Positions 10,862-63,500 of a stretch of 64,000 nt of DNA are shown here, in pieces (within the stretch, counting starts at the first letter, position 1; each line of letters begins with the position of its first letter). Source of the DNA: Planctomycetota bacterium (lineage in GTDB: Bacteria; Planctomycetota; UBA1135; UBA2386); contig JADJPQ010000004.1 in the NCBI GenBank assembly GCA_016713175.1, positions 372,278-436,277 of the forward strand, written 5' to 3'. Under the pieces are notes generated by a model. The model did no database searches. It was not told where the DNA came from and saw only the letters and a program-made list of their open reading frames with translations. The translations under genes were made by a program, and so were the position numbers.

Positions 10862-11451
10862 ATGACCGCGATCGACGACGTCCTGCTCGAACGGCTGCGC
10901 ACCGGTGACGACAGTGCGCTCGGCCCGATCTTCGCCTGCCAACGCGATAAATTGCTGCGGATGGTGCAGTTCCGGCTCGATCCACGCCTCGTCGGCCGGA
11001 TCGATGCCGAGGACGTGTTGCAGGAAGCCTACGTCGATGCGCAAAAGCGGCTGTCTGCCTGGCGCGCCGATCCGCGGCCGTTCCACGTGTGGTTGCGGCT
11101 GGTGACGCAGCAGACGATGGTCGACATCCACCGTCGGCACCTCGGCGCCAAGATGCGCGACGCGGGTCGCGACCGGATGGCGCCGCAGAGCCAGAGCCTG
11201 TCCGGGTTCCTGGTCGGGACGATGACGTCGCCGAGCCAGGCGGCGATGCGCGAGGAACTGAAAGTCCAGCTCGAACAGGCGCTCCAGAGCATGGAGGAGA
11301 TCGATCGCGAGGTGCTGGTGTTGCGGCACTTCGAGGAACTGTCCAACAAGGAAGTCGCCGAACTGCTCGGCATCGGCGAGAACGCCGCCAGCAACCGCTA
11401 CGTGCGGGCACTCGGCCGGCTGAAGGGGCTGCTGTCGCGGCTGCAGGAACC

Positions 11452-11455
<4 letters not shown>
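10862..11455 (+). CDS. ECF-type RNA polymerase sigma factor
   Basis: Region 2 (DVLQEAYVDAQKRL...FHVWLRLVTQQTMVDIHR) and region 4 HTH (REVLVLRHFEELSNKEVAELLGI...NRYVRAL). Its stop overlaps the GTG start of the downstream kinase (GTGA). Confidence 0.8.
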
Positions 11456-14133
<2,678 letters not shown>

Positions 14134-15575: not shown

Positions 15576-18464
15576 TCAGTCGATGTACAGGAACTCGTTG
15601 CTGGCCAGGGCGATCTGGCACAGTTGCGGCCACGGCTCGGTCACCCCGGACGCCCTGGCCTGTTGCAGCCATTCCGCGATCCGCGAGCGCTCGTTGACGG
15701 ACGGTGTGCGGCCGAGCGCCTGCCGCCAGATCCAGTCGATCCGCGGGCCCGCCTCGGCGATTGCCGCAGCCGCCGCGGCGAACGCGCGCGCCTGCTCGTT
15801 GGCGAACGGACTGTTCAGCAGCAGCAGCGCCTGCGGCGCGACGGCACTGGCCGGACGTTGTTCGATGTGGACGCTCGGATCGCAGAAGTCGAATGCGGTG
15901 AAGAAATCGAACATCGCATTGCGGATCACCGGCAGATAAAGCGATCGCCGTGGTGCCGAGTAATGCGCGCCGTTGCCCGACTGGTCGTTGGTGACGTAGT
16001 CGCGGTCCTTGACTGTCAACAGCGTGCCGCCGACGGTGCGATCCAGGGTGCCCGCCACCGCCAGCATCGCGTCGCGGACGATCTCCGCTTCGAGGCGGAC
16101 GCGGTTCTGACGCCACAGCAAGCGGTTCTCGGGATCGACGGCAGCAGCCGCCGGATCGTGGGACGACGCCAGTTGCCAGGTCCGCGACAACAGGATGCGG
16201 CGGAACAGCCGCTTCTGCGACCAGCCATCGGCGATCAGTTCGCGCGCCAGCCAGTCGAGCAGTTCGGGATGGCTCGGTCGGTCGCCGCGGACGCCGAAGT
16301 TGGATGGCGACCGCACGAGGCCGTGGCCGAACAGATGCTGCCAGGTGCGATTGACCTGCACGCGCGCGGTCAGCGGATGGCGTGGATCGAACAGCCACCG
16401 CGCCAGTTCGCGGCGGCCGCTCCCGTTTGGCGGCATCGCGGGTCCCGGCACGATCGACGCCAGCTCCGCGAGATAGCCGCGCGGCGTCGCCACTTCGGCC
16501 AGCGCCAGGTGGTTGCCGCGGATGTGCAGTTGCAGGTCGACCGGCTTGCCGTCGCGGACGCACATCGCCACTGGAGCCTGTGGCGGCACGGCGGCCTTGG
16601 CAGCGTCGCGCGCGGTCGTCAGTTCGTGCAGTCGCGCCTGCAGCGGCGCCGGCAATGCCTGCCGCAGCGCGTCATCCTGCACCGCCAAGAGCCCTCCGGG
16701 CTCGAACAGCAGCGCGCGAGCGCTCTCCAGCAGCGCGTCGCCGAGTTGCCTGGGTGGCTTGTCCTTGTCGGCTGCCGCGAGCGCGCGTTGCCACGCATCG
16801 GCCGCGGTGGCGAACAGGGTCTGGTAGCGGGCCGCGAGTTCGCGCCGCGATTGCGGCGGCAGGCCGCCCAGCAGCACCGCGAATGGTCCGCCCTTGCCCT
16901 GCTGCGCGCTGGCGCGTTCGGCGAACGTCGCGTCGTCGGCGTCGGCGAGCCGTTGCCACGGCTCGAGCAGCGGCGCATCGGCCCGCGTCAGCAGGGAATC
17001 GGCGACTTGCCGGATCACCGGCGCGATCAGGCCGTCGGCGAGCGGTGAGTTCGCCGGCCACGGGCGCGTCGAGCCGTCGCCCAGGTGCAGCAGCAGCAGC
17101 TTGTCGAGATGTGGCGTGGAGCCGTGCAGTCCCTGCAGCCGCAGCGTGTGGCGCCCTGGCGCGAGGTCGAACTCGGCGGCGACGAACCAACGCTGCTGCG
17201 CCGGGAACCAGTCGCCGGTGGTGTGTTCGAGCGTGCGATCGGCAATGACCTTGCCGTCGATCGAGAGCTGCAGCGGACGCGACTCCTTGCCGGCCATCCG
17301 GACTTCGAGTCGATGGCGGCCGGCGTGCGCGACGTCGACCTCGTACTCGGCGAACTGCGTGCCGCCCTGATGCGTGTGCAGCACGATGCAAGCCGGTGAC
17401 CCCCAGTGCTCGCGGTCGGCGCGCAGATTGGTCCGGGCCGCGGATTCGGCTTCGATGAAGTTGGCATCGGCGAGCGCCGCCTGGGCGGCGAGCAGGTAGC
17501 GGCCGATGTCGGCGACGGTCGCCTGGCGCAGTTCCTGCGTCACGGCGCGTTCGGTCTGTTCCAGCTCGGCTGCCTTGGCATCGGCGAGGCCCTGCAGGCG
17601 CTTGCGCTCGGCGATCTCGGCGTCGGTCGCCAGTTCGCGATCGACCCAGCGCGAGACGTGGTCGAGGTTGGCGAACGTGTCGGTGCTCTTGAAGATGCCG
17701 GCCAGCGCGAAGTAGTCGCGCTGCGACACCGGGTCGAACTTGTGGTCATGGCAGCGCGCGCAGCCGATCGTCAAGCCGACGAACGTGCGGCCGACCAGAT
17801 CCAACTGTTCATCGACGGTGTCGAACAGCAGCTTGTCCTTGTCCTGCTCGGCGAGCATTTTCGGGCCGAGCGCGAGGAAACCGGTGGCGACGATGCGATC
17901 CGGCAGCGGCGCGGGATCGTCGGCCGGCAGCAGGTCGCCGGCGATCTGCAGGCTGCCGAACCGGTCGAACGGCAAGTCGTCGTTGAACGCGCGGACGACC
18001 CAGTCGCGGTAACGGAACGCTTGTGCGAACGCGAGGTTCTCGTCGAGGCCGTTGCTGTCGCTGTAACGCGCCAGGTCGAGCCAATGCCGCGCCTGCCGCT
18101 CGCCGAAGTGCGGTGACGCGAGCAGGCGGTCGACGACCTTGGCGAAGGCATCGGGCGCCGGATCGGCCACGAACGCGTCGACTTCGGTCGGAGTTGGCGG
18201 CAGGCCGGTCAGCGCGAAGTGGGCGCGGCGCAGCAGCGTGCGGCGGTCGGCGACCGCGGCCGGCGTGACGCCGGCTGCCACTTGGGCCTGGCGGACGAAG
18301 CGGTCGATCGGCGTGCTGTTCCACGCTGGTTCGGCGACGGTCGGTGGCGACGCTTCCGCCAGCGGCCGGAACGACCACAGCGACGGCTCATCGGCGCGTT
18401 GGGCGACCAACCACGACGACAACAGGACGGCCGCAGCGACGAAGCGCTCTGGTTTGGCAACCAA
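15576..18464 (-). CDS. DUF1549/DUF1553 (PSCyt2/PSD1) family secreted protein
   Basis: Signal peptide. DUF1549 blocks (HWLDLARYSDSNGLDEN, CARCHDHKFDP) and a C-terminal DUF1553 block (RPSHPELLDWLA...DGWSQKRLFRRILLSRTWQ). Confidence 0.8.
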   Translation of the reverse strand: MVAKPERFVAAAVLLSSWLVAQRADEPSLWSFRPLAEASPPTVAEPAWNSTPIDRFVRQAQVAAGVTPAAVADRRTLLRRAHFALTGLPPTPTEVDAFVADPAPDAFAKVVDRLLASPHFGERQARHWLDLARYSDSNGLDENLAFAQAFRYRDWVVRAFNDDLPFDRFGSLQIAGDLLPADDPAPLPDRIVATGFLALGPKMLAEQDKDKLLFDTVDEQLDLVGRTFVGLTIGCARCHDHKFDPVSQRDYFALAGIFKSTDTFANLDHVSRWVDRELATDAEIAERKRLQGLADAKAAELEQTERAVTQELRQATVADIGRYLLAAQAALADANFIEAESAARTNLRADREHWGSPACIVLHTHQGGTQFAEYEVDVAHAGRHRLEVRMAGKESRPLQLSIDGKVIADRTLEHTTGDWFPAQQRWFVAAEFDLAPGRHTLRLQGLHGSTPHLDKLLLLHLGDGSTRPWPANSPLADGLIAPVIRQVADSLLTRADAPLLEPWQRLADADDATFAERASAQQGKGGPFAVLLGGLPPQSRRELAARYQTLFATAADAWQRALAAADKDKPPRQLGDALLESARALLFEPGGLLAVQDDALRQALPAPLQARLHELTTARDAAKAAVPPQAPVAMCVRDGKPVDLQLHIRGNHLALAEVATPRGYLAELASIVPGPAMPPNGSGRRELARWLFDPRHPLTARVQVNRTWQHLFGHGLVRSPSNFGVRGDRPSHPELLDWLARELIADGWSQKRLFRRILLSRTWQLASSHDPAAAAVDPENRLLWRQNRVRLEAEIVRDAMLAVAGTLDRTVGGTLLTVKDRDYVTNDQSGNGAHYSAPRRSLYLPVIRNAMFDFFTAFDFCDPSVHIEQRPASAVAPQALLLLNSPFANEQARAFAAAAAAIAEAGPRIDWIWRQALGRTPSVNERSRIAEWLQQARASGVTEPWPQLCQIALASNEFLYID

Positions 18465-19045: not shown

Positions 19046-20335
19046 TCAGCGGATCAGGATCGACAGGGCGTCGCTGAACGCGAAACCGAACGCATTGACT
19101 CCGGACGAGGTGGCTCCTTGGGCAAACACTAGCATGCCTGCCAGTGCGGGATCGGCAGGGACGGGAATCGGGAAGCGATCGCGGCCATTGCTGTCGGCGA
19201 CACCGACAAACGACACGTCCGGTGAAGCCCACAGGGCACATCCAGGGGCGCCAACCTGTGCGCCCAGAAACGGCAGAGCCCAGCCGGACCACGCGGCATC
19301 GCTTGTGCCAAGCCAAAACACCGAGAGTGAGCCCGCCTGGAGTTGTCGCAGAGTCAGCTGGAACGTCTGTCCAGGCCGTGGCAGCCCAGAAGAACCCATG
19401 CGCGGCTCGAGGCCAGCGCTGGTCACGCAGCCGCGCCCATACGACTCGAAGGGGCGCGGCGCCGCGGCGACAAGCGCTATCTGGACGCCACTACCAAAGG
19501 CGATCAGATGCCAGGCACTGCCGGGGACCTTTCGCCACAACGAGAGATAGGTGCTCCACGGCGCTGCGGCCAGTTCGGATGTCCACGGATCGATGACGAC
19601 ACTGCCGCCGCCGGTGGCGAACGCAGGGTCGCTCGGGGCAACCTCGGTCGCAAGAACGGCGCCCGAGTCGATGTCGATGCGGAGCACGCTGGTATGATCG
19701 AGAATCAGCAGGTCGCGATCGGCGCCCAGGGAAATAGTCGGTCCAATGCGTGGCTGGTGAGCCTGCGGCAGCACCAACAGTGGCCGGAACACCGGCCCCG
19801 CGGGCACGAAATCGACTGCCCACACGTGCGCAGGGTTCGTGACCGTGACGTCGACTGCGAAGAACACTTCACGCCCGTCCGTCGCAAGGCCGGACACGCG
19901 GCCAGTCAGACCCAGTGTCGCCAACATGCCATTGTGCATCAGCATCGCGGGGCCGATCCCCTGCTTGGGTGTGAAGCCGAGTTCGCCTTGGATCCCTATT
20001 TGCCAGATCGCGTGACGCGCCGCGGCGATGTGTCGTCCGGTGAACGGTAGCGACGGCAGGCTCGAGCCAGGTGCGAACGCCCGGGATGTCGGGTCGAACC
20101 AGAGTTGATCGACTGAACTCCGATCTGCGTAAATGTAGCCATCGCCACCGGACGCAAGGGAGATCGCGCCGGCCGGGTCACTTCCAAGCAGGCGGCCGTC
20201 CGGCGCGAACACCAAGATGTAGTTCACGCCACCGGCCACCCAGCCCGTCGAGGGGAGCTGCGTCGAACCCGCAACGGCCAACCCTGCGACAGCCAAGGCG
20301 CACTTACACAGAGCTGTCAACGAGGCCGGTATCAT
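19046..20335 (-). CDS. Hypothetical secreted protein
   Basis: Signal peptide MIPASLTALCKCALAVAGLAVAG. Start codon overlaps the upstream gene stop (ATGA). Gly/Ser/Pro-rich beta-type composition. No recognisable catalytic motif. Confidence 0.5.
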   Translation of the reverse strand: MIPASLTALCKCALAVAGLAVAGSTQLPSTGWVAGGVNYILVFAPDGRLLGSDPAGAISLASGGDGYIYADRSSVDQLWFDPTSRAFAPGSSLPSLPFTGRHIAAARHAIWQIGIQGELGFTPKQGIGPAMLMHNGMLATLGLTGRVSGLATDGREVFFAVDVTVTNPAHVWAVDFVPAGPVFRPLLVLPQAHQPRIGPTISLGADRDLLILDHTSVLRIDIDSGAVLATEVAPSDPAFATGGGSVVIDPWTSELAAAPWSTYLSLWRKVPGSAWHLIAFGSGVQIALVAAAPRPFESYGRGCVTSAGLEPRMGSSGLPRPGQTFQLTLRQLQAGSLSVFWLGTSDAAWSGWALPFLGAQVGAPGCALWASPDVSFVGVADSNGRDRFPIPVPADPALAGMLVFAQGATSSGVNAFGFAFSDALSILIR

Positions 20336-22239
20336 GGACATATCCCTATCCAAGCACCGCGCGAGGCGGCGGCGATTCCGGTCTCTTCGTATACGCCCCC
20401 TGGCTGTTTCCGGAACTCCTCGACGATCATCTGCGCGTACCAGATCGGTTGCTGGGGCGGTAGGTTCAGCACGAACACATCGTCGCCCATGCTGTTCGTG
20501 ATAGTGCCGGTCAGCGTCGAAGTCAAGTCAATGTTCAGCGTAATCCCAGTCAGGGATGGGTGCGGCGCGGCGGTTTGTGGAGGAGTTGGTGTAATGTGCA
20601 GAGTCCAGACACAGTTGAGGTGGCTATAGAGATGCCTGTTCCCGTCTCGGACCACGAATGGGTGCCCTACTCTCGGGGGCCCATAGGGGGCGATGATTCT
20701 TGGGTGGGCGCCTGCTGGGTGCGCGGTGCCGGCGCCGAACGGCGTGGCGCTCCAGAACCGATTGAATCGGCCACGATTGACACGGAACACGAACCCGTTC
20801 TCGCGGCCTGCGCTGGCCAAGACGAAGCCTGAATCACTTGCAGTCGACACATCCCAGATCCCCAAGAACCTCTCCCAAGCGTACATGGTGCCGCTGGAGC
20901 CATCGAGTGTCGTCGTGTCAAAGCTGGCTAAGACTGACATCGGGACTGAAGGATTTGATAGGTCTACTTGATCAATTCCATCCATCTGGTGGGCTATGTA
21001 TCCGGTTCTGCCGTCGGCCCGCAAATGATGTGCAACCGATGGTTGGACGGAAGCTGTCGGGTAGTTTGGGTTGTCAGGTATCATTGAGACGAGCGAGCCT
21101 GTCTGCGCAAGCGATGGCAGCTGAATTGTCAGTGGTATTGCGGGTATGTTGGGAAAATTGACTTGCGAAATGTTGACGGCGTCAATATTGCGGAACGGCG
21201 ACTCTTGTAGGATCCACATCGTCGCCGGCGATACGGACTCATCGACCCAAACCGAATGCGGCGCCGCAGCGAAGAGGGGGTACGTTGGGGTCGCGCCAAG
21301 GACTGATGGAGGGAGCAGCGGTGCGACCGGAGGTGGGACCACATGACGTCTAGGTCGCCATTGCCCCGGGTTTGACAGTGATAGCTGCGCCAAGTCCAGT
21401 ATTGTGACTTGGCGTCCAACCCAATCACATGCGTAGAGTCGATTGTTGAAAATCATGCTGTCGTGGATGCTAACGGGCTGCCACAAGTCTGACGAACCGG
21501 ATGTCCAGGTATGAAGAGCGGTTGGGGTCGAAGGGTTGATGAGCGATAGCAGATAAACGTCGTGGAGCGCCGTCTGAATGAAAAGCAGTGACCGGCTCGA
21601 GTCAATCGTAATAGTGTGGCAAAAACTAGGTAGGGCCATCCAGGAGTTCGCTACATGGGCGAGGGTGTTCTGTGTTCCTGCACGCTGGAGCTCGATTATC
21701 CAAAGACCGGGTCGAAGGTTGTTAATGGCGTACAGGAATGTGCGTTGCGACGGGCCGTGAAAGTGCGCGACGATCTCTCGATTTGTGCATAGGTTGGAGT
21801 CGATTGGGACCGGACCCTGGCAGTAGGGTGTCGCTCCGTTCAGGGCAGCCTGGAGGGCAGGGTTGCTCACTGGGATTGGGGCTTCCGCCACAAATATTGG
21901 CGTTGGTGGAGTCAGGCTCTGAAGATGGACGTTGGCGGGAACTGCGACTCTCGGGGCCGTGACATCGACCACCATGACTCCGTTGTTGCGGCCAAGCGCC
22001 AGGTACTCGCGATCATCGTTTGGATCCGCTGGATTCAGTGGGTCGGCGAAAGCCGCTAGGCCGGACGTCCAAGGATAAGGGCAAGGTCCTGGGGCGGGCA
22101 CGGGTGCCTGATAGATTATGGAAAAAGTGCCATCTCCTGAGCTTCCCGCCAAATGGCCGGGCGGGTTCGTCGCTGGTCCATTCTGTCCCAGGGCTAGTCC
22201 AGCAAGCAGATGCACCGCGAGTATGAAGAGCGATCTCAT
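20332..22239 (-). CDS. Hypothetical secreted protein (636 aa), encoded in a lower-GC segment
   Basis: Signal peptide MRSLFILAVHLLAGLALG. The coding region is visibly less GC-rich than its surroundings, with relaxed third-position GC. No recognisable domain by eye. Translationally coupled to the downstream gene. Confidence 0.5.
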   Translation of the reverse strand: MRSLFILAVHLLAGLALGQNGPATNPPGHLAGSSGDGTFSIIYQAPVPAPGPCPYPWTSGLAAFADPLNPADPNDDREYLALGRNNGVMVVDVTAPRVAVPANVHLQSLTPPTPIFVAEAPIPVSNPALQAALNGATPYCQGPVPIDSNLCTNREIVAHFHGPSQRTFLYAINNLRPGLWIIELQRAGTQNTLAHVANSWMALPSFCHTITIDSSRSLLFIQTALHDVYLLSLINPSTPTALHTWTSGSSDLWQPVSIHDSMIFNNRLYACDWVGRQVTILDLAQLSLSNPGQWRPRRHVVPPPVAPLLPPSVLGATPTYPLFAAAPHSVWVDESVSPATMWILQESPFRNIDAVNISQVNFPNIPAIPLTIQLPSLAQTGSLVSMIPDNPNYPTASVQPSVAHHLRADGRTGYIAHQMDGIDQVDLSNPSVPMSVLASFDTTTLDGSSGTMYAWERFLGIWDVSTASDSGFVLASAGRENGFVFRVNRGRFNRFWSATPFGAGTAHPAGAHPRIIAPYGPPRVGHPFVVRDGNRHLYSHLNCVWTLHITPTPPQTAAPHPSLTGITLNIDLTSTLTGTITNSMGDDVFVLNLPPQQPIWYAQMIVEEFRKQPGGVYEETGIAAASRGAWIGICP

Positions 22240-22374
22240 CGAGGCGAACTCTAGTGAACGGTTCGTCAACCGGTCAACTCCCGGCGAACCGGAGCGCGAT
22301 TGCGGTAGAGCGGAATGAGAAGCCATTCGTGACAGCCTCAAAGCACGTTGCGGCGTTAGGTTGGGTTCCAGTCG

Positions 22375-22565
22375 GTTCCGCACCACCAGGAAGTCCGGCG
22401 ATCACCAACCCCGTGCCGACGATCGTCGCTGCATCGATCTTCCCATCGCCGACCGCGACTCCGAGCAGCGTCGCCAGCACCGGCGTCACCAACGAGATTA
22501 GACTCAACTCGCCGGCCGGCTGGTGCCGCAAGAGCCAGAAGTCGGCTGCCAGCGCCCTGGCCATT
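22375..22565 (-). repeat. Decayed direct copy (copy A) of the 3' ~200 nt of the EamA transporter gene (24679–24900)
   Basis: Direct nucleotide comparison: the ccaccagg..gatcaccaaccccgtgccgacgatcgtcgc..cgccgaccgc..gagcagcgtcgccagcaccggcgtcac block is shared with the 24.7 kb gene end. It encodes the fragment LISLVTPVLATLLGVAVGDGKIDAATIVGTGLVIAG. Confidence 0.75.
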
Positions 22566-37697: not shown

Positions 37698-39884
37698 TCA
37701 ACGATGCAGCGGTATCCGATACCTCACCAACCGGATGCCGTGCCTCTCCTGGGTCGCGGTCTGGGTGATGCCACCGGGGCCATTCGCCCCTGGGAACGCC
37801 ACCAGCGGCGGCGCCCGGTACGTGTCCGCCATCAGCCACTCGCTGGCATTGCCGCGGATCCAATGCGCGCCGCACGTCGACTTGTCCGTGTGCGGCGGAG
37901 CGTCGACCGGCAGGCGCTCGCCAGGGGGCCGGGTTTCGCCGATGGCCCCCGCGGCGGCCCGTTCCCAATGCCCTCGCGTCGGCAGCATGGCACCCAGGGA
38001 GGTCGCCAGGCGCCACGCTGCCCAGAAGTCGGCAAGTGCCGGCAGCGTGGACCTGATTCCGGCGGCAGGCGTCGCCAGCATGGCGGGCAACGCGTCGGCG
38101 GGTTCTTGCGGGTGCGCGTTGTTCGACAGGTGGTCACCCGCCAGCGCTTCGCGGGTGTGCAGCTTCAAGAACGCGCCAAAGGGCCCTTCTCCGAACTCAT
38201 GACGGAGCACGAAGAGGGGCGCACCATCGGTTGCGATGCCGACCGTCGGCGCGGGCGGAACCGGCAGCCAGGGTTCGCCGGGAAGCCAGTTGCGCAGGCC
38301 CTCGAGCGTGTGGCGGACCGCGGTCCAGGGGGCCTGGGCTGCAGCGGGTTCCTCGGTCGGGCCGGCGGGTGCGAACTCGCGCAGATAGAACAGGCACAGT
38401 GGGTCTTGTTCGTCCCACCACAGCGAAGCGTGAACCGGCACGACCAGCAGCCAGGTGTAGCCGGGCCGTGCCAGCAGCGTCGTGCCGGCGATGGGCCTGA
38501 CGAACGTATCCAGTGACGGCGGCGGGTCGGTGACACTGCACAACGCGACCTGGAACGTGTCGGTGGCAGCGATTTCGACGGCCGCGAGGCCGCAGGTCCG
38601 GGCCATGTGTCGCAAGGCGTCCGGGGCATCGGCGAGCCGCTCGTTCAGCGGTTGCAGCAGGTCGTCCTGACGGCGCGGCGACAGTGCGTGCCACATCCGC
38701 AGCAGGTCCGGATCGCGGTCGCGGGCCGCAGTGGCGAGGCTGGCGGCGCGGTTGCGATCGAGCAGCCAGTCGCGGACCAGGAGCCCACCGACGGCCAGCG
38801 CAGCCACGGTCAGCGTGAGCAGCACCGCGCGCCGATGGTGACGCCAGGTCCGGCCGACCGAGAACGGAATGTGGATCGGCAGCTGCCGCTCGCAGCGCAG
38901 CAGATCGGCCAGCAAGGCCGCGGCATCGGGGTAGCGATCGCGCGGGTCGAGCTCGAGTGCCCGCGTCAGCACCTGCGTCAGTGGCCGCGGCAGGTCCGGC
39001 CGGAGGCGGGACAGGCGGGGCAGCCGCCAGGTCGACGGTGGTTCCATCGGCCGTTGGTGCAGTGGCGACCAGCCCGTCAGGCAGTCGAACAATGTTGCGC
39101 CGAGGGAGAACACATCGGACGCGGCCGTGCACCGGCCGGCGCCGGCCTGTTCCGGGCTCCAATAGTGCGGCGTGCCCGAACGGTGGTCGACGCGCGTGAT
39201 GGTCGACACTCCCTCCTGGTGCGCCATGCCGAAGTCGGTGATCACGGCGCGAATGCCGTCGTCGACCAGCATCACGTTGGCCGGCTTGATGTCGCGATGG
39301 ATCAGGTTGATCGCATGCAGGTGGTCGAGGCCACGGGCGATCTGCAGGCCGATGCCGATCACCCAGTCGGTGTGGTCCTTGGTTCGCAGGCCAGCAGGCA
39401 CGTCGTCGGGGCGGAGTGTTCGCGACGGGGCGATGCGTTCGCGCTCATCCGGCGACAACACGCGGGTCGCGTCGGGATCGCTCGGCGGAGTGGTCGTCGG
39501 TGTGACCTGCGCGGCGTCTGCTGGCAGCGGCATCCGGGCGATGCCGGCGCGCCGGTTGCACTCCTTCGCCAGGCTCTCGCCGGCCAGCAGGTCCATCACC
39601 AGATAGGAAGCACTCGCCGTGGTCAGCAGTTCGTGCACGGCGACGACATGTGGTGAGTCGACGGTCTGCAGCAGCCGGGCCTCACGGCGCAAGCGGGCGA
39701 TCGCGTCGGGCTGGTGGCGGTCGAGATCGTCGTGGCGGACGACCTTGATGGCGAATCGCCGTTCGTCGGCCAGTCGAACGCCGAGCATCACGTCGGCCTG
39801 GGCACCGCGGCCGAGTCGACCGAGCAGGCGGTAGCCGGGCGGATCCTGTTCGGGCTGTTGCCGTTCGTGCGCGCTCACCATCAC
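37698..39884 (-). CDS. Ser/Thr protein kinase with a TM helix and a C-terminal formylglycine-generating-enzyme (FGE/SUMF1)-like domain
   Basis: Kinase motifs (AIKVV, HRDIKPANVML, DFGMA, GTPHYWSPEQ). TM segment AVLLTLTVAALAVGGLLV. C-terminal GHWERAAAGA...CGAHWIRGNASEWLMADTY matches the FGE GxxDMsGNvwEW signature. Confidence 0.75.
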   Translation of the reverse strand: MMVSAHERQQPEQDPPGYRLLGRLGRGAQADVMLGVRLADERRFAIKVVRHDDLDRHQPDAIARLRREARLLQTVDSPHVVAVHELLTTASASYLVMDLLAGESLAKECNRRAGIARMPLPADAAQVTPTTTPPSDPDATRVLSPDERERIAPSRTLRPDDVPAGLRTKDHTDWVIGIGLQIARGLDHLHAINLIHRDIKPANVMLVDDGIRAVITDFGMAHQEGVSTITRVDHRSGTPHYWSPEQAGAGRCTAASDVFSLGATLFDCLTGWSPLHQRPMEPPSTWRLPRLSRLRPDLPRPLTQVLTRALELDPRDRYPDAAALLADLLRCERQLPIHIPFSVGRTWRHHRRAVLLTLTVAALAVGGLLVRDWLLDRNRAASLATAARDRDPDLLRMWHALSPRRQDDLLQPLNERLADAPDALRHMARTCGLAAVEIAATDTFQVALCSVTDPPPSLDTFVRPIAGTTLLARPGYTWLLVVPVHASLWWDEQDPLCLFYLREFAPAGPTEEPAAAQAPWTAVRHTLEGLRNWLPGEPWLPVPPAPTVGIATDGAPLFVLRHEFGEGPFGAFLKLHTREALAGDHLSNNAHPQEPADALPAMLATPAAGIRSTLPALADFWAAWRLATSLGAMLPTRGHWERAAAGAIGETRPPGERLPVDAPPHTDKSTCGAHWIRGNASEWLMADTYRAPPLVAFPGANGPGGITQTATQERHGIRLVRYRIPLHR

Positions 39885-40302
39885 TTCCGACTCTTCTCCC
39901 GCACTGCGGGACTGCCGAGAGCATAGCCGGATGTGCGCTTCCCGCCAGGGGATGGCCCCGCGCGTCTCGTGTGCGCGTCAGTTCCCTGCGCCGCGAGTGC
40001 TGGCGCTGTCCGCTCTGGCTACGCCGCTTGCTGGCGTGCCGCCGTTCGACGCCAGAACAACAGGCCGAGGCCGAACGCGAACGGCAGCAGCGGGAACAGC
40101 AACGGCCAGGTCGCTGACGGTTCGTTGTCGAGCGTGCACTGCGTCGACCCGACCGTCGCTCGTCGACCTGAACGTCGTGCACGGCGCCACCACGACCGGG
40201 GGCGCGGAGCGGCGGGGCAGCGGGAGGCAACCTACCGGCGGCGGTCGGGATTGTTCTCCCTGCCCGCAACTCGCCGGAAATCGGTACTATCGGACCGCGA
40301 AC

Positions 40303-41613
40303 ATGCGGGTCGCTGCGATGGTGTTGTGGTCGTGCGTCGCCGTACCGGCTCAGGGCAGTACCGTACCCGGCAAGCCGTTCGCGATCCGCGTGCACTTCCA
40401 GGACGATGCGATCGCGCAGCACGCGGCCGAACTGGCGGCAGCGACCTGGGCGTTCGGCAAGACCGCGTTGCGGCTGGATCCGGCAACGGTCGATCGCAGC
40501 AAATTCGAGGTCCACATCTACCGCGATGCCAAGGCCTACCATGCGGCGGGCGAACGGCTGCGGTCGGTGCACCATCGCGATGCCCCGGGTTTCGCCGACT
40601 TCAAGTCGAAGTCCGCACACTTCCTGCTCGAGGAAGCGCTCGACGAGCCGGGTTTGCCCGAGCATGCGCAGCGGCTGTTGGTGCACGAGTGCATGCACCT
40701 GGCGACCTATGCCGGCAATCCGGGTTCGGCGTTCCTGCCCGAGTGGTACATCGAGGGCCTGGCGCTGTGGACGGAAGGCGAAGTGTTGCGGCAGCGGCTG
40801 GCGCTGGCTGCGGTCGACGATGACCCGTATGAACAGCGCTACAACCAGCACGCGCAGAAGGCGATCGCGGCGGGGGAGTTCCCGACGCTGCGGCAGATCA
40901 TGGCGCAAGACCTGAAGGGCGTGACCCGCCGGCAACGCTATGTGGTCTACCGGCAGTTGCTGCGGTTCCTGCACGGTCGCGGCGATCTCGCGGCGCGGTT
41001 GTGGGGCGCCAGCAACATTGCGTGGGGGCCTGCGGTCGTCGAGCGCTTGCGCGACCTGGTCGCCGCGGAGACGAACGGTGGGCTCGATGCGCTCGACGAG
41101 GAACTGCGGGCGTTCGTCGGCAAGCGTGCGGTGCCGGCGCCACAACCGGCGGTGCCGGTGCCGGTCGCCGATGCGCAGGGTCAGCCGGGGCAGCCGGGGT
41201 TCTTGCCGGGATCACCACAGGTTCGCTGGGTCGGGACGCATGGTCGGCGCGAACTGGAGTTCTCGGCCTCGGTGACGCTGCGCGGACAGGTGCCGCAGGC
41301 GGACCTGGCGTTCGAACGCGGCGGCGAACGTTGGCTGCGCGTGACGATCCATGGTGGCGACGGGATCCACGTCAGCGAACGACAACCAGACGGCGCGTGG
41401 CGCGAACTCGGTGTCCACCTCGCAGCGGCGGAAGTGGTGGCCGACAAGCCGATCCAGATCCGCGTGCTGGCCCGCGCCGGCAAGCTGGAGGTCGAACTGG
41501 CGAAGAAGCGCGTGCTGGCGATCCCGATCGCCGGCCTCGATCTGCAGTGTCGCTGGGGACTCGGCGGGCCGATCGGCAGCAGGGCGCGCTGGTCGGATGT
41601 CCGCGTGAAGTGA
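40303..41613 (+). CDS. Hypothetical secreted protein with an HEXXH motif (possible zinc metallopeptidase)
   Basis: Signal peptide MRVAAMVLWSCVAVPAQG. A LVHECMHLATY (HExxH) motif followed by EWYIEGLALWTEG, which may supply the third ligand. Start chosen at the signal-peptide Met, because the track ORF extends upstream. Confidence 0.45.
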   Translation: MRVAAMVLWSCVAVPAQGSTVPGKPFAIRVHFQDDAIAQHAAELAAATWAFGKTALRLDPATVDRSKFEVHIYRDAKAYHAAGERLRSVHHRDAPGFADFKSKSAHFLLEEALDEPGLPEHAQRLLVHECMHLATYAGNPGSAFLPEWYIEGLALWTEGEVLRQRLALAAVDDDPYEQRYNQHAQKAIAAGEFPTLRQIMAQDLKGVTRRQRYVVYRQLLRFLHGRGDLAARLWGASNIAWGPAVVERLRDLVAAETNGGLDALDEELRAFVGKRAVPAPQPAVPVPVADAQGQPGQPGFLPGSPQVRWVGTHGRRELEFSASVTLRGQVPQADLAFERGGERWLRVTIHGGDGIHVSERQPDGAWRELGVHLAAAEVVADKPIQIRVLARAGKLEVELAKKRVLAIPIAGLDLQCRWGLGGPIGSRARWSDVRVK

Positions 41614-41616
41614 CGC

Positions 41617-43653
41617 TCACCCTTCCCGCAGCACCTGCTGCAGCGCTTCGATCGCCGGCAGCAGATCCTGCCGATCTTCCAACAGCGGCCGCAGCAGATC
41701 ACCGCGTTCGCTCACCCGGCCCGGCATGTTGAAGATCGAGAAGCGCGACGGATGCAGATCGTCGTCCTCGAGTTCATCCCACGCCAGCGGCGCCGACACT
41801 TGCGCTCCGCGGACCGGCCGCGCCGAATATGGCGGCACGATCGTCTGGCTGCGCCGGTTCTGCAGGAAGTCGAGGTAGACCTTGCCATCGCGAGCGTCGG
41901 GCAGCCGTTCGACCGTCGCGATCGACGGCAGTTGCCGCACCAGCACGCGCGCCACCGCCTCGGTGAACATCTTGCTGTGGTCGTAGGAGTAGCCCGGCTG
42001 CAGCGGGATCACGATGTGGATGCCCTTCTTGCCCGAGGTCTTCAGCAGCGGCCGCAATCCGATCCCGCGCAGCAGCTTGCCGGCCGCGCGCGCGATCCGC
42101 ACCACGTGTGGCCAAGGCGCTTCCTTGGGATCGAGGTCGAGCAGTGCGAAGTCCGGCGCGTCCGGCGTCGCCGCGCGCGACAGCCACGGATGCAGGTCGA
42201 TCGAGCCCAGATTGATCGCGTACAGCAACTGTTCGCGCGTGTCGATCACATGGTGCGGTGTGACGCCGCCATCGTGCGGGACCGGTGTGGTCCGGACCCA
42301 ATCCGGCGTGCCATCCTTGGCCTCGCGTTGATAGAACGATTTGCCGTCGATGCCGTCGGGAAAGCGGTTCAGGTGCACCGGCCGGTCGCGCAGATGCGGC
42401 AACAGCACGTCGGCGATCTGGTCGTAGTAGGCCAGCAGGTCGCCTTTGGTGTAGCCCTCGGCCGGCCACCAGACCTTGTCGAGGTTGGTCAGCCGCACGC
42501 GCGAACGGGCGGTCGGCGGTCGTGTCGCGGTGGGCGCGGCTCGCGGGGCCGCCGCGGGGTTGCTGCCGACCGGGATGCGCAACCAGTCGGCGGACGGACC
42601 GTCGACGAAGGCGCCGGTTGCGCGCTTGCCGACTGCCGCCGGCAATCCTGCTTGGGCGATCACGTCGAGCAGTTGCGGGCCGCTGCCGGTGACGTGGTCG
42701 ACGTACAGTACCCCAGGGTTTGGCGCGACGATCGCACGGAGCGCCGCCTTGCGATCGAGCAGCGGCAACGGCCGCAGGTCGTAGTCCTCCCAGAACAGCA
42801 GATCGAAGGCGTAGAACACGACGCCGTGGCCATCGCCGGCCAGCGCGCGGGCGAGGGACTCGCGACAGGGTCGTTGCGCCGCATCGAGGGCCACCAGCAC
42901 TCCATCGAGCACCGCCGATTCGGCCCGCAGGCGAAGTGCGCCATGAGCGACTGCGGGCGGCAATGGGACTCCGCGCACGTCGATCGCATCGCCGCGCTTC
43001 TGCAGCAACGCGCGCTGGCCGATGAACTCCATCTCGAACAACCAGCCCGGATCGACGAACGGACCGGCGGTGCCGCCGATGCGTTGTTGGCCTGGAGCTG
43101 CGAGGAACGGCGACTCCGGCGCATGGCCGAGTTCGACTCCGAGCGCGCTGTCGCGCGAGGTTCCGGCGTAGCGGTCCTTGCTCTTGAACAGCAGCCAGGT
43201 GTTCTTGCCCTGCGTCGTCTTGACCAGATGCCACTCGCCGCGCAGCCGGCGCCCGCGCAGCACGATCTTGACTTCGCCGAGCTGCATCGCCGTTGGCCAG
43301 TCCGGCACCTTGACCAGGTCGTAACGGCCGCGATCCCAGATCTGCATCGTGCCGGCGCCGTACTGTCCCCGCGGGATGCGGCCGTGGAAATGTTCGTATT
43401 CCAACGGATGGTCCTCCGTCTGCACCGCCAGTCGCTTGTCGCCGGGGTCGTACGAGAACCCCTTGGGCACGGCCCACGAACGCAACACGCCGCCGGTCTC
43501 GAGCCTGAGGTCGTAGTGCAGGTTGCGGGCTTCGTGACGGTGTACGACGAACACCGGCGCGCGCGGCGCGGCCGCGTCGGCCGGACCGCCAGTCGGTTCG
43601 GGCGTCGCGTCGAAGTCGCGCTTCTTGCGGTAGTCGTCGAGCGGGTCGGCCAT
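41617..43653 (-). CDS. ligD: LigD-like NHEJ protein: 3'-phosphoesterase domain + degenerate ligase nucleotidyltransferase module + primase-polymerase domain
   Basis: Phosphoesterase domain (DPLDDYRKKRDFDATPEP, FVVHRHEARNLHYDLRLE, VKIVLRGRRLRGEWHLVKT). Polymerase domain (RLTNLDKVWWP...KSFYQRE...IDLHPW...LLDLDP...KTSGKKGIHIVIPL). The central region aligns to ligase motifs I–V, but motif I reads FEMEFIGQR instead of FExKxDGxR. Start at MADPLDDY. Confidence 0.75.
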   Translation of the reverse strand: MADPLDDYRKKRDFDATPEPTGGPADAAAPRAPVFVVHRHEARNLHYDLRLETGGVLRSWAVPKGFSYDPGDKRLAVQTEDHPLEYEHFHGRIPRGQYGAGTMQIWDRGRYDLVKVPDWPTAMQLGEVKIVLRGRRLRGEWHLVKTTQGKNTWLLFKSKDRYAGTSRDSALGVELGHAPESPFLAAPGQQRIGGTAGPFVDPGWLFEMEFIGQRALLQKRGDAIDVRGVPLPPAVAHGALRLRAESAVLDGVLVALDAAQRPCRESLARALAGDGHGVVFYAFDLLFWEDYDLRPLPLLDRKAALRAIVAPNPGVLYVDHVTGSGPQLLDVIAQAGLPAAVGKRATGAFVDGPSADWLRIPVGSNPAAAPRAAPTATRPPTARSRVRLTNLDKVWWPAEGYTKGDLLAYYDQIADVLLPHLRDRPVHLNRFPDGIDGKSFYQREAKDGTPDWVRTTPVPHDGGVTPHHVIDTREQLLYAINLGSIDLHPWLSRAATPDAPDFALLDLDPKEAPWPHVVRIARAAGKLLRGIGLRPLLKTSGKKGIHIVIPLQPGYSYDHSKMFTEAVARVLVRQLPSIATVERLPDARDGKVYLDFLQNRRSQTIVPPYSARPVRGAQVSAPLAWDELEDDDLHPSRFSIFNMPGRVSERGDLLRPLLEDRQDLLPAIEALQQVLREG

Positions 43654-43756
43654 CGGATCGGCAGTTCGGCACCGGTGCATGCCTGTTGCAACCGTCCACG
43701 TGGGGCGGCGGCGGGCGTGGCCGTAATCGCCAGTGGACCACGATACGGAACCAGAC

Positions 43757-44380
43757 ATGAAACGACTGCTCCTTGTGTGTGCGATGTTCGCCGGCCTGCT
43801 GTCGGCCCAGGAAGAACCCCGGCAGAAGCCCGAGCGCGAGGCGCCGCGGGCCGAGATCCGCGAACGGGTGCGCGAGCGCCTGGAAGCCGTGCGCGAGCGG
43901 GCCGCGGCGGGGCAGGAACGCGCCGGCGAATGGCGTGAGCGGGCCGAGAAGCTGCGCGAGCAGCTCCGGCAACGCCAAGACCAGCGCGCCGGCGGTGAGC
44001 CGGGCGCTCGGCCGGGCCGCGGCTTCGGTCCGGTGCGGGCGGGCGGTTTCGGCGGTCCGGGCCGGGGCGCGTTCGGTCGACCGGGTCAGGGCGGTCCGCC
44101 GCCGGAGGTGATCGAGCGACTGCGTCGGATGGAGCGCCGCCTGGCCGAACTCCGGCAGCGCCTCGAGCAGCGGCAGGGTGGTGAAGCATCGCGCGGCGGT
44201 CGCGGCGAACGCGGCCGGCGCGGTGGCGACCGACGGCCTGGCGAACGTGGTCAGCGGGGCGAGCGCCGCGGCGGCAGCGAGCGCGGTCCCGGCGCCGAGC
44301 GCGGTGACCGGCGCGGCGGCCAGCAGCGCGGCCGCAGCGAGCGCCGCCGCGGTGGCGGCGATGAGGTGGTGGCGGTCTGA
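43757..44380 (+). CDS. Secreted low-complexity Arg/Glu/Gly-rich protein
   Basis: Signal peptide MKRLLLVCAMFAGLLSAQ followed by RE-rich helical repeats (RERVRERLEAVRERAAAGQERAGEWRERAEKLREQLRQRQ) and RGG/GRG-rich segments. Divergent from ligD. Confidence 0.45.
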   Translation: MKRLLLVCAMFAGLLSAQEEPRQKPEREAPRAEIRERVRERLEAVRERAAAGQERAGEWRERAEKLREQLRQRQDQRAGGEPGARPGRGFGPVRAGGFGGPGRGAFGRPGQGGPPPEVIERLRRMERRLAELRQRLEQRQGGEASRGGRGERGRRGGDRRPGERGQRGERRGGSERGPGAERGDRRGGQQRGRSERRRGGGDEVVAV

Positions 44381-60515: not shown

Positions 60516-63500
60516 CATGACTTCGACGACACCCGAGGATCCCGTCCTGGCAATGCTCGACGAATGGCAGTTGGCGCGAGACGCTGGCGCGCCGCGCGCG
60601 CCGGAGGAGATCTGGGCCAGGCACGTGGAGTGGCATCACCTGCAACCGTCGCCGTGGCCACAGTTTGTCGCCAAGGTCGCGCTGCTGCTGAAGGCCGAGG
60701 GGATGGGCTTGCATGGCAATGCAAGTCTCGCCCCCCCGATTCCCGTCGAGCAGATGCCGGCGCCTGCACTCGGGCCGGCCATCACCCATTTCCGTGACCT
60801 GAAGCACGTCGATCACGGTGGACTCGGCGTGGTGTATTCGGCGATGCATGACGAGTCCGGCCGTCGGGTGGCGATCAAGGTGCCGCGACCGGACAAGATC
60901 ATGCTGCGGGAGACCGAGGAGCGGTTTCGACAGGAGGCGGTGCTGACAGCAAGGCTGGATCACCCGGGGATCGTGGCCGTCCTGGGCCAGGGATGTACAG
61001 GTGACGGGCGACCGTACTACGCGATGCAACTGGTCGAGGGCCGGTCGCTGCAGGACTGCATCGAGGAGCACTTCCAGGACTTCCCGGTGGGCGCGAAGTC
61101 TGTCGACCAGAGCCTGAGGTTCCGGCAGCTCGTTGGCTACATGGTGATGGTCTGCAACACGGTGGCCTATGCGCACGAGCAAGGTGTCCTGCATCGGGAT
61201 CTGAAGCCGGCCAACATCCGGATCGGCACGTTCGAGCGTGTGCACGTGCTCGACTGGGGCCTGGCGAAGAGCCGCGATGCCGGCAATCAGGGTGACGATG
61301 GGGTCACGGGCCCGACGCCACCGGGACACACCACACCCGGGCGAGCCATGGGAACCGTGTCGTTCGCGAGTCCGGAACAGGCGGCCGGCGACACCGACGC
61401 CATCGACCATCGCAGTGACGTGTATGGACTGGGCGCGACGCTCTACTGCATCCTGACCGGCAAGCCACCGTTCGGCGAGGAGTCGCACTCGAAAACCAAG
61501 CGGCGAGTCCTGAGCGGGGATTTCCCAAGACCGCGGTCGGTGAATCCATCGGTGGACCGGGCCCTGGAGCGGATCTGTCTCGTCGCCATGGCGCTGCGAC
61601 GGGAAGATCGATATGCGGCGGTGGCGAAGCTCGGAGACGACCTGCGCCGTTGGCTTGCGGACGAGCTGATCAGCGTGGAGAAGGACAACTGGCTTCGCTG
61701 GACGGTGCGGTGGCGGCGGCGCAACCGAGCGGTCGCGCGGGTGATCGACGGGGGGCTGGTGGTGGCCACCGTGGCGGTGATCGCCCTGGCGACGGTGTGG
61801 GGAGAGTATTCGCGCAAAGCCGAGACAAGGCAGCGGGTCGAGGCGCTCCTGCGCGACGGCGATGCGAAGCTCTTGGCCCACCAGTATGACGGTGCGCGTG
61901 CTGACTACGTGGCGGCGCAACGATTGTCGAGCACCGAGACGGACCTCGAGGAGCTGGTGCAGCGGGTTCGTGGCGCGACGGACCGTCTTGGTGTGCATTG
62001 GCGGGGTCGTGAGTTCCTTCGTCGAGCCGAGGAGGTGGAGTTCCAGATCATGGGCAGCTACTGGAAGCTGCTGCCATCCGAAGAGACCCCGGACCGCCGA
62101 GCGATCCACTATCCCGGGGAACGCCTCGGCGACCTCGCGACGGGCGAGGCCGGGGCTCGCCAGGCGCTCTTGGACCTCGGGATTGGCCCGGTTCAGGATC
62201 CGTTCTCGGAGCTTGCCAAGGCGCAGGTTCCGGCGCCGGAGGTGGCGAAGGTGCGCCGCCGAGCTGCCGAGATCACCTTCCTGGCCGGAATCGCTCATGA
62301 GCGCTTGGGTCAGGCCGAGCCGGAACCCGCGCAGGTGGTTTGCCGGCAGCAGGCGCTGGCGGATCTCGACGCCGCCAAGTCACTTGGCATGCGCGACCGC
62401 GTGGTCGACTGGTTCCGCGCGGAGATTCTGGAGCGGAGTGGCGCAGCCGACGAGGCAAAGACAATCCGTGAGACCCTGAACCAACGCCCTTACGAGAGTA
62501 TCCTCGATTTCCAGTTCGCTGCGGTGGAGCATGCTCGCGGATTGCGCTGGGAGGAGTCGATCGAGGCCTATCTCGTGTCCGGCGTGATGCAGTCCAAGAA
62601 CTACTGGACATTCTACCGGACCGCGAAGGCCCTGGAGCGGGCAGGACGGCCCAAGCATGCCGAAGCCGTGTTTCGAGCGTGTCTGCGACTGGTTCCGGGT
62701 GACGCAACATCGCAGAACAGTCTTGGCTCGCTGCTTTCGGATCAGAAGCGGTACGCCGAGGCGGTCGTCGAGTTGGAGGCTGTGATTCGGCACAACCCTG
62801 ACTACCTGATGGCCTACACCAACTTGATGCTCGCCCATGCCGAGTTGCGCGATTTGAACAGCGTGCTTGCCGTGCATCAACAGCTGCTGGCGCGGCCGAT
62901 CGACAAACACACCGAAGCCATTGCCTGGGAGAATCTCGGCATTGTTCATGAGCGGCTTGGCGATAACGCCATGGCGTTGGCCAACTACGACAAGGCGGTG
63001 GTGGCCGATCCGCAATCGAAGAGTGCGAAGCGCAATCGGGCAGTTGCGCTGACGAAGCTACGCCGTTACGAAGATGCCGAGGCCGAATTGGCGAGCGCGA
63101 TTGCTTTGGCGCCGAGGGACGGCGAGCTGCGCTACCTGCTGGGCAATGTGTTTGCGGAAAACGAGCAGCTTGCCAGAGCCGTCAGCGAGTACACCGCGGC
63201 CTTGTCGCTGGCACCGGGTTTCGTGGCCGCTCGGCACAACCGAGCGCTCATGCTGAGCAAGCTCGACCGGTTCGAGGAGGCGATCCTGGATCACCGTGCC
63301 GTACTCCAGGCAGAGCCAGCGCATGCGACGGCGCTGCCGGACATCGGCAGTCTGTACGCCAGAATGGCCCGGACCCAGCGGGAACCCTTGCGCCGTAGGA
63401 CCCTGCTCCGAGCGCAGGCGGTCTACCTCGAGCTTCTCGACAAAGAGCCGCGCAACGTCGAGGTGCTCCTCGATGCGGGCCAGATTCACGGGGACTTGGG

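Follow-up and report, generated by a model that had tools for sequence, protein, structure and literature searches.

A LigD-like gene on the minus strand of a Planctomycetota contig (positions 41617 to 43653 of the window, by which we mean the whole 64-kb stretch of contig JADJPQ010000004.1 that was analysed) encodes a protein that most probably serves as the end-processing subunit of a split, or non-canonical, bacterial system for non-homologous end-joining (NHEJ), with sealing performed in trans. Its 3'-phosphoesterase (PE) and primase-polymerase (Pol) domains look catalytically competent, judged from their aligned active-site residues, and they are joined by a ligase adenylyltransferase (NTase) domain that has kept its predicted fold. 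Because the OB domain and the phosphoryl-transfer residues have been lost, this internal ligase is almost certainly unable to self-adenylylate or to seal nicks, and with the OB domain and the catalytic residues gone, ligation must come from another protein. In functional terms the protein does not qualify as a DNA ligase D: of the features that define such an enzyme, the lysine of motif I and the OB domain were both tested for and are absent.

In the mechanism that we propose, the protein would descend from a LigD of the Pseudomonas aeruginosa type (PE-Lig-Pol) and would be recruited to Ku-bound DNA ends. There, PE would heal the 3' ends and Pol would fill gaps or extend the ends, after which a stand-alone LigD-type ligase of ~300 amino acids (NTase plus OB), encoded downstream of Ku, would seal in trans. 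The remnant of the ligase domain could form a rigid scaffold or spacer linking PE and Pol, or it could bind DNA and/or the C-terminus of Ku, like the live NTase of Mycobacterium tuberculosis LigD.

Active sites of the LigD-like protein

Pfam scans assigned LigD_N (PF13298) to residues 38-145 (E 5e-40) and LigD_Prim-Pol (PF21686) to residues 402-653 (E 4e-84) of the window protein. DNA_ligase_A_M (PF01068) scored 18.7 bits in the same scan, under its gathering score of 26.2, and for the OB domain (PF04679) no Pfam match was obtained. The NCBIfam profile of the LigD ligase domain, TIGR02779, aligned residues 199-360 with profile positions 11-183 of 302 (E 1e-17); since the match stops at position 183, the NTase half of the profile is covered and the OB half is not. 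An AlphaFold2 model of residues 165-385 reached a predicted local distance difference test score (pLDDT) of 92.7, and its best Foldseek matches were adenylation domains of ATP-dependent DNA ligases, including those of LigD (1vs0, 6nhx; probability 1.00, E 6e-12 to 1e-9). Homology of the middle domain to ligase NTase domains is thereby confirmed at the level of profile and predicted fold. The sequence-only reading had already aligned this region to ligase motifs, and TIGR02779, the alignment to 1vs0 and Foldseek agree with it.

The ligase domain of M. tuberculosis LigD (1vs0, 6nhx) is ~23% identical to the middle domain and has the same fold, as predicted here. In a phmmer alignment to 1vs0, K481 of FEGKWDGYR, the nucleophile of M. 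tuberculosis LigD (PMC8656161), falls on E209, and the motif I aspartate falls on I211. The lysine-to-glutamate and aspartate-to-isoleucine changes previously read from the letters, in the motif FEMEFIGQR at 43012-43038, are therefore located exactly, at residues 206-214. In the same alignment, R501 corresponds to V229, the motif III glutamate to V252, E613 to P338, R629 to P353 or a gap, K635 to R359 and K637 to P361. Nick sealing by M. tuberculosis LigD is lost in the E613A and K637A mutants and reduced in R501A and R629A, and K635 helps to position ATP (PMC8656161). All six of these ligation residues (K481, R501, E613, R629, K635, K637) are thus substituted in the window protein. Common to both proteins are E207, G212, R214, D250/G251, F283/D284, R301, K343 and W357. 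A catalytic lysine hidden elsewhere in the region was considered and rejected, because the rest of the catalytic residues have disappeared as well, together with the OB domain.

The same pattern was obtained when 161 dead domains were set against two active groups, the ligase domains of 17 canonical LigDs and 119 stand-alone ligases. At eight positions (209, 211, 229, 252, 338, 339, 353 and 359), both active groups are invariant and the residue is replaced in the dead family. Residues of the fold and of the adenine pocket are kept in the dead group (E207, G212, R214, D250, G251, F283, D284, R301, K343, Y349 and W357), and five positions (D201, F210, A247, L271 and R306) are conserved in this group only.

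Motif V is separated from Pol by 24 residues in the window protein and by 16-38 across the family, compared with 142-191 in canonical LigDs. The absence of an OB-fold after motif V, as claimed from the letters, therefore stands, both by the length of this linker and by the missing PF04679 match. In a model of the full-length protein (predicted template modelling score 0.76), the connection between PE and NTase was ordered and the linker between NTase and Pol was disordered (pLDDT <50 at residues 368-381).

The two flanking domains had been called intact, and alignment to proteins of known structure upheld this. PE aligned without gaps to the PE domain of P. aeruginosa LigD (2lj6 and 3n9b, E ~1e-43), so that H42, H48, D50, R52, H84 and Y88, all six active-site residues, correspond to H40, H46, D48, R50, H82 and Y86 of the window protein. 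Pol was aligned to the NHEJ polymerases of M. tuberculosis, P. aeruginosa and Methanocella (2iru, 2fao and 5dmu; E ~1e-42 for 2fao). The DxD metal ligands (D506 and D508), D595 and SGKKGIH are intact and correspond to D137, D139, D227 and motif II of the M. tuberculosis enzyme. In the homologue alignment, the active-site residues of PE and Pol are invariant across the dead-ligase family.

The family and the genes beside it

In a search of ~5.8 billion proteins, at least 120 homologue clusters (646-717 amino acids) were recovered. One of them is the window protein itself, and the other 119, mostly from Planctomycetota metagenome-assembled genomes, have 58-72% full-length identity with it. At the position of the motif I lysine, glutamate stands in 89 of the 120 clusters, arginine in 12 and glutamine in 11, and lysine in none. 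The loss of this lysine is thus conserved among orthologues, in a family whose breadth could not be seen from the window. When the species representatives of GTDB were scanned, further members came to light in Spirochaetota and Acidobacteriota (Marinacidobacterales) and a single one in Gemmatimonadota; the scan also returned canonical LigDs of 838-897 amino acids that were used for comparison. Altogether at least 160 homologues of the same architecture were found in several phyla (Planctomycetota, Spirochaetota, Acidobacteriota and others), none of which has the motif I lysine. The dead ligase is therefore a large, conserved, multi-phylum family and no one-off lesion. Within the middle domain, the cluster alignment is invariant at E207, G212, R214, A247, G251, D284, L293, R301, K302, L305, D319, H320, L328 and W357, and also, or nearly so, at R306.

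Ratios of non-synonymous to synonymous substitution (dN/dS) were calculated for the 12 closest pairs. The dead domain gave values of 0.17-0.56, PE and Pol values of 0.05-0.35; the C-terminal linker gave ~0.3-1.4 in 11 of the 12 pairs and 3.9 in the remaining one, an outlier. Purifying selection acts on the dead domain, which is constrained less strongly than PE and Pol, while in most pairs the linker changes at a neutral or near-neutral rate.

When 1.84 billion representative proteins were searched by phmmer with the middle domain alone, 9 matches were obtained at E <= 1e-30. Beyond about the first 20 matches, nearly all are ordinary ligases with intact K and DGE motifs and 35-40% identity. 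By sequence similarity, the dead domain's closest active relatives are therefore ATP-dependent ligases in which motifs I and III are intact, and many of these ligases are part of LigD-sized proteins. In a neighbour-joining tree, which is distance-based, carries no support values and is a rough guide only, the dead domains of Planctomycetota, Spirochaetota, Acidobacteriota and Gemmatimonadota formed one clade and the stand-alone ligases another, with the window protein nested inside the Planctomycetota clade. The stand-alone ligase might be a duplicate of the internal domain or an acquired gene.

Degenerate ligase domains were also seen outside this family. Two LigD-like proteins of Anaeromyxobacter (L051:3786-5981 and L052:2472-4712; 731-746 amino acids) no longer have the OB domain, the glutamate of motif IV or the lysine of motif V. 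They have kept the motif III DGE, and their motif I reads FEVKYDGYR in L052 and FEPRYDGYR, with a lysine-to-arginine change, in L051. Both nest among canonical LigDs in the rough tree and look like an independent, earlier stage of the same decay. Four Myxococcales/Polyangiaceae proteins (L055, L057, L060 and L061) form a further, very divergent degenerate group. In these four and in the LigD-like proteins P0405, P0483 and P0489, the very divergent degenerate ligase domains have motif I sequences such as YDAELDGLR and HEIELVGLR, and variants of the form HEIE..G.R are scattered among unrelated LigD-like proteins. Loss of the internal ligase may, on these sequences, be recurrent.

Beside the gene, a convergent operon of Ku, a ligase and a protein with helix-turn-helix and tetratricopeptide repeat motifs (HTH-TPR) was found in ~24 Planctomycetota loci and in 9 of 11 Spirochaetia loci. 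The ligase of these relatives, encoded directly downstream of Ku, is ~295 amino acids long (PF01068 plus PF04679), shows 33-39% identity with the dead domain across NTase and has intact motifs, e.g. FEIKWDGVR, LDGELV, FDLL, LEGIVGKR and WQKIK. The canonical three-domain LigDs from the same scan adjoin Ku, often with a TPR gene, and have no stand-alone ligase beside them. This complementary pattern, a dead LigD with a stand-alone ligase or an intact LigD without one, fits a transfer of sealing to a separate polypeptide.

The third gene of the operon (e.g. L003:12016-12876 and L001:16113-16988, both on the minus strand), whose start overlaps the stop codon of the ligase gene, encodes a protein of ~290 amino acids with a MerR-type HTH at the N-terminus (PF13411, 22.9 bits) and four TPR repeats. 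Homologues are encoded beside Ku at canonical LigDs (L064, L067, L068, L073, L074, L076, L077 and L081) and in Anaeromyxobacter (L051 and L052). The protein may be an undescribed accessory protein or regulator of NHEJ. In one relative, on a 7.19-Mb contig, two inserted genes separate the LigD-like gene from the TPR / ligase / Ku operon, one for a reverse transcriptase (L001:14174-15592, minus strand; PF00078, 472 amino acids) and one for a flavin adenine dinucleotide-dependent oxidoreductase.

The sequence-only reading had foreseen the need for a separate ligase and had proposed a search of the genome for it and for ku. Both genes were found outside the window. Ku (MBK8098078.1, P0191; 243 bits on TIGR02772) and a ligase of 300 amino acids (MBK8098079.1, P0247) are recorded on a 700,437-bp contig, as is MBK8097905.1, the LigD-like protein; their accessions are consecutive and 173-174 above it, which puts them ~173 genes away. 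The ligase has the motifs FELKWDGVR, DGELV, FDLL, LEGIVAKR and WQKIK as well as PF01068 and PF04679 (OB domain). On a Logan contig with an identical Ku, the ligase gene begins 19 bp after Ku and has motifs I-V intact. MBK8098079.1 (P0247; L084:3798-4385) is annotated as 'hypothetical protein IPK26_13290'; with 211.8 bits it lies just under the TIGR02779 cut-off of 227.75, which may explain why it has no name at NCBI. An intact-motif ligase thus adjoins Ku on the same contig, as the pair flanks the gene in most relatives, and from this linkage in relatives we infer that the ligase is the partner of the window protein.

In domain order the window protein is like the P. aeruginosa-type LigD (PE-Lig-Pol, ~840 amino acids), with which it shares homologous PE and Pol domains and a homologous middle NTase. 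Unlike that protein it has no OB domain, and the lysine and aspartate of motif I, the glutamates of motifs III and IV and the lysine of motif V are replaced. Stand-alone LigD-type ligases of the MBK8098079.1 family have, in contrast to the dead domain, kept all motifs and the OB domain. The archaeal Methanocella system is similar in that Ku, ligase, polymerase and phosphoesterase are separate proteins. Split or 'non-conventional' bacterial NHEJ, in which LigD's domains are divided among several proteins, is a recognised category (Sharda et al., 2020; PMC7719229), and the system described here resembles it in having Ku, a stand-alone ligase, and Pol and PE activities encoded apart from the ligase. 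At the level of the domain split, as read from the genes, it belongs to this category. It differs from other split systems in that PE and Pol are still fused through a conserved dead ligase domain, and this fusion points to inactivation in situ rather than to simple gene fission.

A literature search that covered few subscription journals returned no description of a dead, OB-less ligase domain between PE and Pol, no account of this architecture for the NHEJ of Planctomycetes and nothing on the HTH-TPR protein. In public databases, members of the family are named 'non-homologous end-joining DNA ligase', as the window protein is, or 'bifunctional LigD'. Proteins that are almost certainly non-ligating are thus annotated as ligases, and the intact-looking partner ligase is labelled hypothetical. 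In NHEJ surveys based on domains, the protein would count as PE+POL and the remnant would go unnoticed, since PF01068 stays below threshold; whole lineages would in this way be mis-scored. The family may be viewed as a natural experiment in which the ligase activity of LigD was moved to a separate polypeptide, with the empty ligase shell left under selection. It could offer a clean system for non-catalytic roles of the ligase domain, such as Ku docking, positioning of DNA ends and allosteric control of the polymerase, which work on mycobacterial LigD approaches by point mutants (bioRxiv 10.64898/2025.12.12.693941). The conserved HTH-TPR protein is a candidate for an extra NHEJ component.

Role of the remnant and rival explanations

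The dead domain probably persists as a module that has a structural role, binds DNA or docks Ku; the first of these options, consistent with the models, is the most economical. In M. tuberculosis LigD, the C-terminus of Ku contacts the NTase part at D522, R567, T572, K579 and L580, and mutations at these contacts alter Ku affinity, DNA affinity and polymerase rate (bioRxiv 10.64898/2025.12.12.693941). The helix DRKAALR (residues 300-306) of the window protein aligns in 1vs0 with R577-E582, spanning the contacts K579 and L580, and this likeness offers a lead towards Ku docking. More tentatively, the dead NTase might be a true pseudoenzyme under selection for a new role, as a platform for docking and hand-off. 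In this role it would engage the C-terminal arm of Ku and/or the nicked or 5'-phosphate end, possibly also the ligase or the HTH-TPR protein, and so couple PE and Pol to sealing in trans. The result would be a four-component NHEJ machine born of the inactivation of the LigD ligase in situ.

Several observations weigh against the assignment to split NHEJ or against an active part for the remnant. The gene is not linked to Ku or ligase in the window, so that co-function in this genome is drawn from co-occurrence and from synteny in relatives, and the placement of all three genes on one contig is inferred from the shared 700,437-bp contig records and the near-consecutive accessions. Acidobacteriota members likewise have no Ku or ligase nearby. 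Ku docking relies on alignment to a single mycobacterial study, with the contact D522 falling in an alignment gap, and the dead domain evolves ~1.5-2 times faster than PE and Pol, which is compatible with a merely structural role. For the family as a whole, the activities proposed are those that sequence and predicted structure suggest.

That the protein has been repurposed outside Ku-dependent NHEJ was the alternative raised by the sequence-only reading. It might, for instance, work alone to heal ends and fill gaps during base-excision repair or the repair of single-strand breaks, especially where it is unlinked from Ku, as in the Acidobacteriota members and in this window, where no NHEJ gene other than the LigD-like gene itself lies within 64 kb. 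For mycobacterial LigD, LigC and PrimC, roles in base-excision repair are reported as postulated (PMC8068969), and for Bacillus subtilis LigD a potential one (PMC4770248). Against this, the window protein is 64-72% identical over its full length to members encoded beside Ku and ligase, nests in the Planctomycetota clade of the rough tree and comes from a contig on which Ku and ligase are kept. Repurposing is not needed as an explanation, and we regard it as unlikely, retaining it as a minor rival for the unlinked copy. The retained residues of the adenine and ribose pocket (E207, R214, F283 and K343), together with the new family-specific positions D201, F210, A247, L271 and R306, could speak for a regulatory pseudoenzyme that senses nucleotides, binding ATP, AMP or NAD and gating PE or Pol. 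With the phosphate-binding arginines and lysines gone, tight nucleotide binding is doubtful, and such a sensor seems a slim prospect.

A middle domain that still works as a ligase, through a relocated nucleophile such as the invariant K302 or K343 or through a non-canonical mechanism, is very improbable, even though its fold is intact and confidently predicted, two lysines are invariant and the pocket residues E207, G212, R214, D250, G251, F283, D284 and K343 survive. The phosphoryl-transfer and phosphate-binding residues have all been lost together, and so has the OB domain, which in ATP-dependent ligases carries motif VI, required for the adenylylation step. Moreover, an intact ligase encoded with Ku in the same genome, and beside the gene in relatives, removes the need for this activity. 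That the source is a metagenome-assembled genome and that Pfam does not call the middle domain might suggest a pseudogene, an artefact of assembly or frameshift, or a biologically meaningless lesion confined to one lineage. This explanation has virtually no probability left and was rejected, as the reading frame is uninterrupted, at least 160 independent sequences from several phyla share the architecture, dN/dS is below 1 in every domain and the structure is confidently predicted.

Gene layout and surroundings in the window

The open reading frame (ORF) list gives the gene as uninterrupted, with 678 codons. A longer reading, up to 43758, is possible, and a 713-amino-acid version is held in the European Nucleotide Archive. 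Because the homologues all begin at MxDPLDDYR, matching the ATG at 43653, this is the likely start. The domains and motif remnants are listed in Table 1 together with the two flanking genes.

Table 1. Coordinates of the LigD-like gene, its domains and motif remnants, and the adjoining genes (positions in the window).
Feature	Residues	Positions	Strand	Basis or remarks
Whole coding sequence of the PE / dead-NTase / Pol protein	678 and stop	41617..43653	-	ORF list, domain scans; = NCBI MBK8097905.1
LigD 3'-phosphoesterase (PE) domain	1-165	43159..43653	-	PF13298; alignment to 2lj6, 3n9b
PE-to-NTase connecting segment, predicted ordered, moderately conserved	166-198	43060..43158	-	pLDDT 84-90, full-length model
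Ligase adenylyltransferase (NTase), almost certainly catalytically dead	199-362 (164 aa)	42568..43059	-	TIGR02779, AlphaFold2, Foldseek
Motif I remnant FEMEFIGQR	206-214	43012..43038	-	Lys to E209, Asp to I211; E207, G212, R214 kept
Motif III remnant LDGVLV	249-254	42892..42909	-	Glu to V252
Motif IIIa FYAFDLL	280-286	42796..42816	-	retained
Helix DRKAALR	300-306	42736..42756	-	R301, K302, L305 invariant, R306 near-invariant
Motif IV remnant GLPAAVGKR	336-344	42622..42648	-	Glu to P338, Gly to A339; K343 kept
Motif V remnant DWLRIP	356-361	42571..42588	-	Lys to R359, Lys to P361
Ala/Pro/Thr-rich disordered linker in OB-domain position	363-385	42499..42567	-	pLDDT <50 at 368-381
LigD primase-polymerase (AEP) domain	386-678	41620..42498	-	PF21686; alignments to 2iru, 2fao, 5dmu
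Divergent neighbour, 80 bp from LigD-like start codon	215-aa ORF	43733-44380	+	probable start MKRLLL Met, 43757
Convergent neighbour, ends 4 bp from LigD-like stop	560-aa ORF	39931-41613	+	HECMH (HExxH-like) motif; no Pfam match

By tblastn with the proteins of relatives, neither Ku nor an active ligase was detected in the 64-kb window, the ligase queries matching the dead domain only; the earlier statement that no Ku gene lies there is therefore correct. The same queries gave no credible HTH-TPR homologue in the window (a weak TPR-repeat match was obtained at 62719-63051, E 7.6e-4, 26% identity) and none of the relatives' conserved neighbours (UbiE, ~1000-amino-acid proteins, DUF72 and GlgP). 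The local gene context differs from that of the relatives' loci, and the convergent 560-amino-acid ORF is unlike the TPR, ligase and Ku genes that occupy the same position there. Genes nearby encode a Ser/Thr kinase, this unknown 560-amino-acid protein, the Glu/Arg- and Gly/Arg-rich protein, an S46 peptidase and a NUDIX protein, with no evident link to DNA repair. The Glu/Arg- and Gly/Arg-rich protein is the divergent neighbour, in which a hydrophobic N-terminus is followed by low-complexity sequence without a significant Pfam family, and it corresponds to the odd RE/RGG-rich secreted protein from which the gene had been described as diverging.

Rfam and tRNA scans of the whole window gave no matches. 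Elsewhere in the window, a pair of large Ser/Thr protein kinases is encoded at 11089-14133 (plus strand) and 37698-39884 (minus strand), and a PSCyt2/PSD1 (DUF1549/DUF1553) protein at 15576-18464 (minus strand); TPR repeats occur in one of the kinases. The G+C content falls to 0.59 over 20-22 kb, compared with ~0.69 elsewhere in the window, and the low-G+C segment (19046-22386, minus strand), which contains two long ORFs (435 and 684 amino acids) without Pfam match, is possibly of foreign origin.

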